From: Burkholderiales bacterium
Lineage (GTDB): Bacteria > Pseudomonadota > Gammaproteobacteria > Burkholderiales > SG8-39
Direction: 5' to 3'
DNA: 64,000 nt
NCBI GenBank assembly: GCA_035624235.1
Contig: DASPRX010000145.1
Span: forward strand, 5,241 to 69,240
Each line of letters starts with the position of its first letter. Positions within the stretch are counted from its first letter, which is position 1. This document shows positions 8,566 through 13,908 of this stretch, in pieces. The notes under the pieces were generated by a model. It saw nothing but the letters and a program-made list of their open reading frames with translations. It did no database searches and was not told the origin of the DNA. A program made the position numbers and the translations under genes.

Positions 8566-9663
8566 ATGGCCCAGGCGCAGCTAAGGGTGCTGCCGATGGC
8601 CCGCAATACCGTGATGGTCGTCGACGACCAGTCGACCGGCCGCGCGATTCTGGAACAGGTCGTTCGCAGCCTCGATCAGCGTGTCGTCGTCGAGGGCTTC
8701 GCGCGCCCCGTGGACGCGGTGGTGTGGGCGACGCGCCACGTGGCGGATCTCGTGCTCGTCGACTACATGATGCCGGACATGGACGGTATCGAGTTCGTCA
8801 AGCGGCTGCGAGCGCTGCCCGGTTACGAGCACATCCCGATCGTCATGGTGACGGTGCACGACGACCGCAAGGTGCGCTATGCCGCTCTGGACGCAGGGAT
8901 CACGGACTTCCTCACCAAGCCGGTCGACGCTCGCGAATGCCTCGCGCGCTGCAGAAACCTGCTCACGCTGCGGCGCCAGCAGCTGGCGCTGGAAGATCGC
9001 AAACGGCTCCTGGAAGGCATGGTCGAGGAGGCGACGCGCGAAGTGCGCGAGCGCGAAAAGGAAACCCTGCTGCGTCTTGCGCGCGCCGGCGAGTTCCGCG
9101 ACGCCGAGACGGGCTACCACCTTATCCGCATGGCGCGCTACTCGCGCCTGATCGCCGGAGCGATCGGCTTGGACCGCGACGAGTGCGAAACGGTCGAGCT
9201 CGCCGCGCCGCTGCACGACATCGGGAAGATCGGCATTCCGGACCAGATTCTGCTCAAGCCCGACAGGCTCGACGAGGGCGAGTGGGAGGTGATGCGCCGT
9301 CATCCGGTGATCGGCCACGAGATCCTGAAGGGCAGCGCTTCCAAGTACGTGCGCATGGGCGCCTTGATCGCGCTCGGTCACCACGAGAAGTACGACGGCT
9401 CGGGATACCCCAACGGCCTCGTCGGCGAGCACATCGTGCTGTGCGCGCGCATCGTGGCGGTGGCGGACGTCTACGACGCACTCACGTCGGTGCGTCCATA
9501 CAAGAAGGCCTGGCCGACCGAAGACGCACTGCAATACCTGCGCGCCCAGCGCGGCGGGCATTTCGATCCGCGCCTGGTCGACGCGTTCATCGGCGTGCGC
9601 GCGGACGTCGAGCGCGTGCAAAACGAGTGGCGCGATCCGGCCAAAGAGGCTGACGAGATCTGA
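8566..9663 (+). CDS. rpfG: Two-component response regulator with HD-GYP c-di-GMP phosphodiesterase output (RpfG-like)
   Basis: N-terminal receiver (VMVVDD, LVLVDYMMPDMDG, LTKP). C-terminal HD-GYP domain (PLHDIGKIGIP, HHEKYDGSGYPNGL, VADVYDALTSVRPYK). Strong RBS GGAAGGGGAG before ATG 8566. The stop overlaps the next ATG (TGATG). Confidence 0.85.
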   Translation: MAQAQLRVLPMARNTVMVVDDQSTGRAILEQVVRSLDQRVVVEGFARPVDAVVWATRHVADLVLVDYMMPDMDGIEFVKRLRALPGYEHIPIVMVTVHDDRKVRYAALDAGITDFLTKPVDARECLARCRNLLTLRRQQLALEDRKRLLEGMVEEATREVREREKETLLRLARAGEFRDAETGYHLIRMARYSRLIAGAIGLDRDECETVELAAPLHDIGKIGIPDQILLKPDRLDEGEWEVMRRHPVIGHEILKGSASKYVRMGALIALGHHEKYDGSGYPNGLVGEHIVLCARIVAVADVYDALTSVRPYKKAWPTEDALQYLRAQRGGHFDPRLVDAFIGVRADVERVQNEWRDPAKEADEI

Positions 9664-12981: not shown

Positions 12982-13908
12982 TCAAGCCGACATCGCAAGC
13001 GCCTCCGCCGTCACGTTGGTCACGTCGCCGCACTCCATGCGACGCATTTGGGCGCGTACGATCCTGCTCATCATCTTCAGGTCGCGGTCCTCGAGACGCA
13101 TCGCCGCGTCGACCCAGGTCTCGGTGATCGCATCCAGCTCCTCGCGCGTTATGGGCTGGACGAGCTTACGCGCCTTGTAGACTGCCTGTGTACCGTTGCG
13201 GCGCTTGGAGTTCTTCGAAATCCATTCACGAACAACACTCTCACCTTCGCCGTCCTTCGCCAGGACGTCGATTACACCCATCTCATGCAGTTCCTTGGCC
13301 GGCCGAACACGGCCCGAAAGAATCATTTCTTCCGCCGCACGCGTGCCGACGCGTCGCGCCAGAAGACTGTAGGCGCCCATCCCCGGGAACAGATTGAAGA
13401 GGATTTCAGGCAGTCCCAGTTGTGCGCTTTCCTCTGCGACGACGATGTCGGACGCGAGGGCACACTCAAAGCCGCCACCCAGTGCGTCGCCCTGCACCAG
13501 AGAAATTGTCGTGAGCGTCGAGCTGTAGAAGTTCTGAATGCGAGGGTACAGATTGTCGATGCAGAGCTTCGCGTAGTGCGCGAGCGCATCGCGGTCGCGC
13601 GCCTTGATAAGGAGCACGAAGAGCGCAAGGTCGCCACCCAGGTTGAACACGCGCGGCGTGCGCGAGCCAAGAACGTAGTAATTGACCTTGCTCGAAACGC
13701 CGTCGACCTCGACATGCCCTCCGTTGACGGCGAGCGCGCTGTCGTGGGCGCGGATATCCTTCAATAGGCCGAGACTGAAGCAGGCAGTCCCCTTCGGGTT
13801 GAAGAAGCCCCACAGCGTGCCACTCGCGGGCTCGAACTCGGTCTGGAACTGCGTCTTGCTATTCCCGTAGGGCAAACGAAGCCCGATTGCGTCGCGCAGG
13901 TTGCTCAT
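12982..13908 (-). CDS. rpfF: DSF-family signal synthase (crotonase-fold acyl-ACP dehydratase/thioesterase RpfF)
   Basis: 308 aa with long stretches matching remembered Xanthomonas RpfF / Burkholderia Bcam0581: VFNLGGDLALF, SLVQGDALGGGFECAL, LGLPEILFNLFPGMGAYS, ITETWVDAAMRLEDRDLKMMSRIVRAQMRR. Both catalytic-Glu contexts (GFE, LPE) are present. RBS GGGAGGA. Convergent with rpfG-rpfC, as in Xanthomonas. Confidence 0.9.
   Translation of the reverse strand: MSNLRDAIGLRLPYGNSKTQFQTEFEPASGTLWGFFNPKGTACFSLGLLKDIRAHDSALAVNGGHVEVDGVSSKVNYYVLGSRTPRVFNLGGDLALFVLLIKARDRDALAHYAKLCIDNLYPRIQNFYSSTLTTISLVQGDALGGGFECALASDIVVAEESAQLGLPEILFNLFPGMGAYSLLARRVGTRAAEEMILSGRVRPAKELHEMGVIDVLAKDGEGESVVREWISKNSKRRNGTQAVYKARKLVQPITREELDAITETWVDAAMRLEDRDLKMMSRIVRAQMRRMECGDVTNVTAEALAMSA

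Follow-up and report, generated by a model that had tools for sequence, protein, structure and literature searches.

The window analysed here, the whole 64,000-nt stretch of contig DASPRX010000145.1 to which all positions refer, carries a four-gene cluster comprising a response regulator and a hybrid sensor kinase similar to RpfG and RpfC, a convergently oriented crotonase similar to RpfF and, between kinase and crotonase, a gene for a heme-oxygenase-like di-metal oxidase (HDO). An earlier note on this DNA had read the cluster as a complete Xanthomonas-type diffusible signal factor (DSF) quorum-sensing circuit embedded among housekeeping genes, and its account of the layout agrees with ours. 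The gene encoding receiver (REC) and HD-GYP domains overlaps the kinase gene at a TGATG, indicating translational coupling of the predicted pair; Pfam domains and a hydropathy scan both support a kinase with several membrane segments followed by REC and HPt domains; the crotonase-fold gene converges on the kinase gene; and the extra gene that had been noticed between the two is the predicted di-iron oxidase. The genes, named below after their Xanthomonas counterparts, are as follows.

8566-9663, + strand: rpfG-like response regulator, 365 aa (Pfam Response_reg and HD_5/HD)
9661-9665, + strand: TGATG stop/start overlap of rpfG and rpfC, read directly from the sequence
9663-12194, + strand: rpfC-like hybrid sensor kinase, 843 aa (Pfam HisKA, HATPase_c, Response_reg and Hpt)
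12267-12938, + strand: accessory gene for a heme-oxygenase-like di-metal/di-iron oxidase (HDO), 223 aa (Pfam PF14518, Haem_oxygenas_2, "iron-containing redox enzyme", 1.6e-18)
12982-13908, - strand: rpfF-like DSF synthase of the crotonase fold, 308 aa (Pfam ECH_1, 1.2e-25)

Comparison with NCBIfam placed the crotonase in family NF006452 with 352.8 bits (cut-off 177, E 1e-105), the next family after NF006452 and NF053515 scoring 81 bits. The generically named NF006452 is in effect, judging from its matches, a model of the DSF-synthase family, because fragments of both Xanthomonas campestris RpfF (PDB 3m6m, 397 bits) and Burkholderia cenocepacia Bcam0581 (5fus, 395 bits) match it at ~396 bits. 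Among PDB sequences the crotonase matches four solved DSF synthases (3m6m, 5fus, 6dgn and 7zq7) at 177–180 bits (E 1e-52), and the best of the other crotonases and hydratases reaches 63 bits, with Pseudomonas DspI (5wyb) at 57 bits. Identity amounts to 41.7% with X. campestris RpfF and 39.3% with Bcam0581. Nine of the ten catalytic and hydrophobic-pocket residues listed for X. campestris RpfF (PMC9864630) are identical in the window protein (G85, L136, G137, G138, E141, E161, G169, M170 and W258), the tenth, L276, being replaced by Ile; the catalytic pair Glu141/Glu161 corresponds by alignment to E148/E168. A neighbor-joining tree places the crotonase within a large beta/gamma/zeta-proteobacterial clade that is sister to Xanthomonadaceae RpfF, leaving Bcam0581 outside the grouping that holds both, and JGI annotation labels its relatives "DSF synthase". 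The peptides that the earlier note had matched to RpfF (VFNLGGDLALF, GGGFECAL, LGLPEILFNLFPGMGAYS and WVDAAMRL...RIVRAQ) are all found in the translation. Checked for affinity to ordinary enoyl-CoA hydratases and for loss of the RpfF residues, the protein keeps those residues and, by these scores, groups with the DSF synthases and not with ordinary hydratases. It would be expected to combine dehydratase and thioesterase activity on 3-hydroxyacyl-acyl carrier protein (ACP), giving a cis-2-enoic acid.

The kinase follows the domain order of RpfC, with a membrane input region, HisKA, HATPase, REC and HPt domains, and retains the phosphorelay residues H198, D625 and H780, the first of these at the same position as the phospho-His of X. 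campestris RpfC. Its segments are listed below.

aa 1-25, nt 9663-9737, + strand: N-terminal sensor, containing R18-P-D20-T21-E22-H-E-Q25
aa 26-172, nt 9738-10178, + strand: hydrophobic input region, from hydropathy
aa 188-415 (188-253 and 300-415), nt 10224-10907, + strand: HisKA/HATPase (Pfam), with H198 in the H-box
aa 428-566, nt 10944-11360, + strand: predicted pseudo-receiver, from hhalign alignment to a REC profile
aa 577-689, nt 11391-11729, + strand: REC (Pfam), with D625
aa 748-828, nt 11904-12146, + strand: HPt (Pfam), with H780

In X. campestris RpfC, DSF binds a 22-residue N-terminal sensor in which R15, D17, S18, E19 and Q22 are essential and the S18T substitution is functional (PMC5391125). 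The window kinase carries R18, D20, T21, E22 and Q25 with the same spacing directly before its first hydrophobic segment, sharing with RpfC the motif R-x-D-S/T-E-x-x-Q beside the first membrane helix, and the form R.D[ST]EHEQ is near-invariant in ~33 kinases adjoining rpfF in related loci. Searched as a stand-alone domain, the kinase REC finds its best PDB match (108 bits) in the RpfC REC co-crystallised with RpfF (3m6m_D). The kinase may bind a DSF-type signal, and its REC domain may bind and inhibit RpfF.

Between the ATPase and REC domains lies an insert of ~115 residues (aa 428-566) that the earlier note does not mention. It is recognised by no family library, and aa 426-576 gave no NCBIfam match; its profile nevertheless aligns with the true REC profile at 98% probability (hhalign, E 1.7e-13). 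His stands in place of the acceptor Asp, and both the acidic DD pair and the Lys are absent. We classify the insert as a predicted pseudo-receiver, that is, a degenerate receiver, because it matches the REC profile and has lost the acceptor Asp, the acidic pair and the Lys. Kinases adjoining rpfF come in two sizes, a long form of ~840-880 aa with the pseudo-receiver and a short form of ~720-760 aa found, for example, in Methylophilaceae and Sulfuriferula.

The regulator encoded by rpfG joins a REC domain to an HD-GYP domain, as does RpfG of X. campestris, and JGI assigns the KO-based name "response regulator RpfG" within the same 90% protein cluster.

aa 16-128, nt 8611-8949, + strand: REC (Pfam Response_reg, 1.6e-25), with acceptor D66
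aa 159-357, nt 9040-9636, + strand: HD-GYP (Pfam HD_5, 4.3e-33), with HDIGK at 217 and GYP at 280

The protein matches the HD-GYP cyclic di-GMP (c-di-GMP) phosphodiesterase PmGH (PDB 4mcw) at 206 bits and keeps all eight residues that we take to be the PmGH metal ligands (E181, H185, H217, D218, H246, H272, H273 and D301 in the window protein), the residue letters agreeing at a constant offset. It is predicted to be a c-di-GMP phosphodiesterase that RpfC would switch on by phosphorylation.

We then examined the conservation of the module with the crotonase as query and one genome per species, which yielded the 80 loci (46-83% identity) on which all locus counts are based. Most belong to Burkholderiales metagenome-assembled genomes (MAGs); Derxia, Noviherbaspirillum, Herbaspirillum, Actimicrobium, Methylophilaceae, Sideroxydans, Nitrotoga, Sulfuriferula, Thioalkalivibrio and Zetaproteobacteria are also represented. 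Searches by tblastn with the window proteins showed that nearly all loci have an rpfC-like kinase next to rpfF and that most have an rpfG-like regulator adjoining the kinase; in 68 loci the kinase lies directly downstream of rpfF and converges with it, reproducing the Xanthomonas arrangement in which the rpfG-rpfC operon converges on rpfF (PMC4504480). A few loci (L069, L052 and L025) hold an rpfF homolog with neither rpfC nor rpfG within the fetched flanks. The first of them, from a MAG labelled Terriglobia (Acidobacteriota bin), encodes a protein 48% identical to X. campestris RpfF, which could reflect mis-binning or an orphan synthase. A literature search found no useful phylogenomic survey of RpfF/RpfR in Burkholderiales.

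A gap of 72 bp separates rpfC from the HDO gene, which follows it on the same strand, is preceded by a Shine-Dalgarno-like sequence and converges with rpfF. No strong terminator was found in the rpfC-HDO gap, and co-transcription of the gene with rpfGC is probable. An alignment of 16 sequences, with identities as low as 35%, shows E80, H83, E84, E137, H170, D174 and H177 to be invariant; all of these except E84, which is invariant in addition, make up the 3His/3carboxylate ligand set that defines the HDO superfamily (PMC13108848). The AlphaFold model (pLDDT 92.5) matched 3dde, CADD and UndA in Foldseek at TM-scores of 0.79–0.83 (CADD 0.83, UndA 0.80), with BesC also matched and PqqC structures ranking below CADD and UndA. 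A profile search of the PDB returned 3dde (Sden_3740) at 70 bits, followed by CADD, MboA and p-aminobenzoate synthase at ~26 bits, UndA being marginal. UndA, CADD and Sden_3740 share the seven-helix fold and the 3His/3carboxylate motif with the window protein and differ from it in sequence (14-22% identity) and, for 3dde, in having no assigned function. UndA, a fatty-acid decarboxylase crystallised with lauric and 3-hydroxydodecanoic acid, takes C10-C14 fatty acids as substrates, and DSF signals fall in this size range. JGI gives many proteins closely related to the HDO the name "PQQ biosynthesis protein C" (P0127 and following), a label that we reject as a family-level mis-annotation because no pqq genes lie nearby and the di-metal ligand set is invariant. 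PqqC is a cofactor-less protein and not a metal enzyme.

An HDO gene adjoins rpfF in ~26 of the 80 loci, at 35-84% identity. The link survives rearrangement, since in Noviherbaspirillum and Herbaspirillum rpfC, HDO and rpfF all lie on one strand, an arrangement different from that of the window, and HDO still adjoins rpfF. Over the 68 convergent clusters, the slot between rpfC and rpfF is occupied as follows.

Nothing: 41 loci
HDO alone: 15 loci
HDO and a membrane FA_hydroxylase (PF04116): 2 loci
HDO and a cytochrome P450: 2 loci
HDO and a Coq4-like protein: 1 locus
Hydrolase_4 alpha/beta-hydrolase, replacing HDO: 7 loci

The other slot enzymes occur in loci L016, L019-L023, L026-L030 and L050 (rpfF-rpfC region at ~8.9-11 kb in each locus), and Hydrolase_4 is found again in rpf clusters that are more distant. 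Such slot contents suggest a tailoring or removal of a fatty-acid signal by these enzymes; the evidence is circumstantial, because most slots are empty and the nearest solved relative of the HDO, 3dde, has no assigned function.

Set beside the X. campestris rpfGHC/rpfF system, the window cluster has the same rpfG-rpfC operon convergent with rpfF, and it differs in having no rpfH and no adjacent rpfB, in the HDO gene between rpfC and rpfF, in its betaproteobacterial host and in its position among housekeeping genes beside a tRNA. Its kinase is also longer, at 843 aa, with the pseudo-receiver between kinase core and REC; X. campestris RpfC has ~726 aa. The earlier note had counted the missing rpfB as a departure from the paradigm. 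We confirmed that no rpfB-type acyl-CoA ligase adjoins rpfF, which is not remarkable because rpfB is also unlinked in Xylella and Burkholderia (PMC4504480). The three-gene module is shared with rpfF-rpfG-rpfC clusters known outside the xanthomonads in Methylophaga, Leptospirillum, Thiobacillus and Methylobacillus (PMC4504480). Loci of Methylophilaceae, Methylotenera, Sulfuriferula and Sideroxydans show the same layout, with RpfF 47-51% identical to that of the window, but combine a short kinase (~720-760 aa) with an empty slot where the window has a long-form kinase and HDO. We know of no experimental characterisation of any of these non-xanthomonad clusters. The Burkholderia diffusible signal factor (BDSF) system of B. 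cenocepacia (Bcam0581 and RpfR) likewise belongs to the order Burkholderiales, uses a synthase of the same family (NF006452) and has c-di-GMP turnover as its output. Its receptor, however, is the PAS-GGDEF-EAL protein RpfR, whereas the window encodes a membrane hybrid kinase and an HD-GYP regulator. No PAS-GGDEF-EAL receptor gene was found adjoining rpfF in the window, where the neighbours are HDO, rpfC and rpfG on one side and a 78-aa open reading frame (ORF) and panC on the other.

The surroundings of the cluster bear out its description as set among housekeeping genes, with secD, yajC, tgt, queA and tRNA-Leu(CAA) to the left and, to the right, a 575-bp intergenic region, the 78-aa ORF, panC, a deoxynucleoside kinase gene, folK and pcnB. 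Boundaries and candidate regulatory sites are listed below.

8326-8412, + strand: tRNA-Leu(CAA), left boundary of the cluster, with queA beyond (ARAGORN; Rfam tRNA, 62 bits)
8456-8471, + strand: CRP/Clp-like site with one mismatch, TGTGAGGAATATCACC, 95-110 bp upstream of the rpfG start codon
13909-14483, no strand assigned: rpfF upstream intergenic region, 575 bp, holding the CRP/Clp-type palindrome and the GC-rich hairpin
13932-13953, no strand assigned: GC-rich hairpin with a 9-bp stem, AGGCTCCCGGAGCCGGGAGCCT, 24-45 nt upstream of the rpfF start codon
14238-14255, no strand assigned: 18-bp perfect palindrome, GTGTGAATTAATTCACAC, 330 bp upstream of rpfF
14239-14254, no strand assigned: perfect CRP/Clp-type palindrome, TGTGAATTAATTCACA, core TGTGA-N6-TCACA, in the rpfF upstream region
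14484-14719, + strand: 78-aa ORF, right boundary, lying between panC and the region upstream of rpfF and annotated as a gene in public contigs

Only two CRP/Clp-like matches with at most one mismatch occur in the 64 kb, both in promoter regions of the cluster. Of the related loci, two keep the palindrome upstream of rpfF, L007 (the closest relative) and L037; the others lack it, and the site upstream of rpfG is not conserved in other loci. These may be lineage-specific regulatory sites or chance matches; the role of the palindrome is uncertain because its conservation is limited to L007 and L037, and we do not claim it as a conserved regulatory site for the mechanism. The hairpin at 13932-13953, which has no Rfam family match, would by its position lie in a putative rpfF mRNA leader, and an Rfam scan of 8000-15000 matched the tRNA alone. 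The 78-aa ORF gave no match in a Pfam search; 65-78% identical copies adjoin panC in ~28 related loci, and we consider it a real small gene that probably lies outside the module. GC content shows a mild drop, to 59-62%, over 11.4-14.6 kb (the 3' part of rpfC, HDO, rpfF and the rpfF upstream region), against 68-75% in queA/tgt. As to integration scars, neither direct repeats of the tRNA-Leu 3' end nor att-like repeats were found flanking the cluster.

Further away in the window, positions 27506-34654 (- strand) hold a run of complex-I-related genes (Oxidored_q6, Complex1_49kDa/30kDa, NADHdh and two Proton_antipo_M) that, from its domain content, resembles a hyf/ech-type membrane hydrogenase or formate hydrogenlyase module and is followed by a Ser/Thr protein kinase gene (34696-35952). 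A gene at 47705-48826 (+ strand), beside CoA-transferase and FAH-family hydrolase genes, has a weak match, at 31 bits just over the cut-off, to the DNA-sulfur-modification-associated DndB family.

Identical copies of the whole locus are present in several soil-metagenome contigs and in the Burkholderiales MAG GCA_035624695.1, from which it follows that the host is an uncultured soil Burkholderiales bacterium. Taken together, the gene content, the domain order, the conserved catalytic, sensor and metal-ligand residues and the conserved synteny make it very probable that the locus is a functional RpfF/RpfC/RpfG-type, that is, Xanthomonas-type, DSF quorum-sensing module in this organism. The core module is a further example of a kind already in the literature, and no surprise to a specialist, because such clusters have been listed outside the xanthomonads (PMC4504480). 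From the features above we infer the individual biochemical steps, the identity of the signal, the inhibitory contact between RpfC and RpfF and the roles of the oxidase and the pseudo-receiver. RpfF, through E148/E168, would take 3-hydroxyacyl-ACP from fatty-acid synthesis, dehydrate it to a cis-2-enoyl thioester and hydrolyse the latter to a free cis-2-unsaturated fatty acid that would leave the cell. At low cell density the RpfC receiver would probably keep RpfF inactive, as in Xanthomonas. At high density the acid would bind the N-terminal sensor of RpfC (R18, D20, T21, E22 and Q25, beside the first membrane helix), leading to autophosphorylation at H198 and to relay of the phosphate via D625 and H780 to D66 of RpfG. 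The HD-GYP domain of activated RpfG would then hydrolyse c-di-GMP, and the lower c-di-GMP level would reprogram gene expression. The di-iron oxidase would most likely act on a signal-linked medium-chain fatty acid, in tailoring or turnover.

Several points weigh against this reading. On the Xanthomonadaceae RpfF equivalog NF053515 the crotonase scores 218.3 bits, below the 550-bit cut-off, which sets it apart from Xanthomonadaceae RpfF; Bcam0581 (185 bits) also fails, the X. campestris RpfF fragment scores 526, and NF053515 appears from these scores to be a narrow Xanthomonadaceae model. The crotonase is best described, on its family scores, as a member of the DSF-synthase family and not as a strict ortholog-level match to RpfF, and neither the chain length nor the structure of its product is predictable from its sequence. 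Hydropathy resolves five clear membrane segments in the kinase and a possible sixth (aa 103-120), an ambiguous helix count that matters because a periplasmic N-terminus, as modelled for X. campestris, requires the number to be odd. Regulation of the kinase may also differ, because the pseudo-receiver is an addition missing from the short-form relatives. The comparisons of RpfC and RpfG with Xanthomonas draw on published residue numbers and motifs, one PDB domain and source annotations. Of the circuit called complete in the earlier note, the synthase, the sensor and the regulator are all in place, but the window yielded no c-di-GMP effector acting downstream: neither rpfB nor a Clp/CRP-type effector appears among the 30 large ORFs scanned over 24.8-63 kb, a scan outside which lie the small ORFs and 0-3.9 kb. 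The host, finally, is known from metagenome assemblies alone.

Among the alternatives, the one that fares best keeps the DSF module and changes its signal. The HDO might oxidise, desaturate or decarboxylate the RpfF product to yield a new DSF-family signal, the slot enzymes of relatives being equivalent, or it might destroy the signal and so replace RpfB-dependent turnover. We regard this as possible, with chances clearly short of even. It is consistent with the position of the gene between rpfC and rpfF, 72 bp after rpfC and with no strong terminator intervening, with the complete and invariant metal site, with the adjacency to rpfF that persists through rearrangement in ~26 of 80 loci, with the other lipid-type enzymes (Hydrolase_4, FA_hydroxylase, P450) that fill the slot in relatives, and with the lack of an adjacent rpfB. 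The resemblance of the model to UndA (TM-score 0.80), a binder of lauric and 3-hydroxydodecanoic acid, points the same way. However, the slot is empty in 41 of the 68 convergent clusters, which makes the oxidase dispensable for the circuit; in sequence the HDO resembles UndA only marginally (E 0.06), and 3dde, its closest relative of solved structure, has no assigned function; characterised HDOs act mostly on amino acids or on their own residues; and our literature search found no paper linking HDO or heme-oxygenase-like enzymes with RpfF or quorum sensing.

A second alternative takes the HDO as unrelated cargo in a permissive slot, either a CADD-like self-sacrificing p-aminobenzoate synthase serving folate synthesis or a PqqC-like protein. 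The profile search does match CADD/CT610 and 4-aminobenzoate synthase (E 5e-5), Foldseek gives CADD a TM-score of 0.83, folK (3 kb away) and panC are close by, and the slot accepts very different genes, including one for a Coq4-like protein. Yet identity to CADD is 16-18%, and the linkage to rpfF holds in loci lacking the queA/panC/folK context (L040, L041, L048, L055, L076 and L085); the PqqC-like variant draws on the JGI names of relatives and meets the absence of nearby pqq genes and the invariance of the metal ligands. We consider cargo unlikely. That the crotonase is an ordinary enoyl-CoA hydratase of fatty-acid degradation or a DspI-type enzyme, and the pair a generic BarA/TorS-like hybrid system, is highly improbable: PGAP does use generic names ("crotonase/enoyl-CoA hydratase family protein", "ATP-binding protein" and "HD domain-containing phosphohydrolase") and the kinase core does score on BarA and TorS models, though far under their cut-offs, but a gap of at least 117 bits separates the DSF synthases from every other PDB hydratase (DspI 57 bits), the kinase carries the RpfC-specific sensor motif, linkage of the three genes persists across dozens of genera and no fatty-acid beta-oxidation genes are adjacent, so that we reject the ordinary-hydratase label on the bit-score gap and the RpfF residues.

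Work on DSF signalling has dealt almost wholly with pathogens of plants and humans (Xanthomonas, Xylella, Stenotrophomonas and Burkholderia). Under the DSF-module reading, the window locus and its 80 relatives indicate a wide distribution of the Xanthomonas-type sensor/regulator version among uncultured Betaproteobacteria of soil and fresh water. The RpfC DSF-binding motif is kept far outside the Xanthomonadaceae, which supports it as a general fatty-acid docking site and offers a signature by which DSF receptors could be recognised in metagenomic sequence. The variable slot is the more useful lead. It is conceivable, though somewhat doubtful, that in some Burkholderiales the rpfC-rpfF gap has turned into a slot for enzymes that modify lipids and through which oxidised or decarboxylated DSF derivatives are made or actively degraded, and that the pseudo-receiver could dock the extra enzyme or RpfF to the sensor. 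If the signal is what the slot enzymes act upon, they would amount to natural tailoring or quorum-quenching enzymes for DSF-family molecules, of a kind sought for disease control, and would widen the chemistry of the signal family; the cluster would then represent a chemically new DSF branch and contain the first heme-oxygenase-like di-iron oxidase with a role in quorum sensing.

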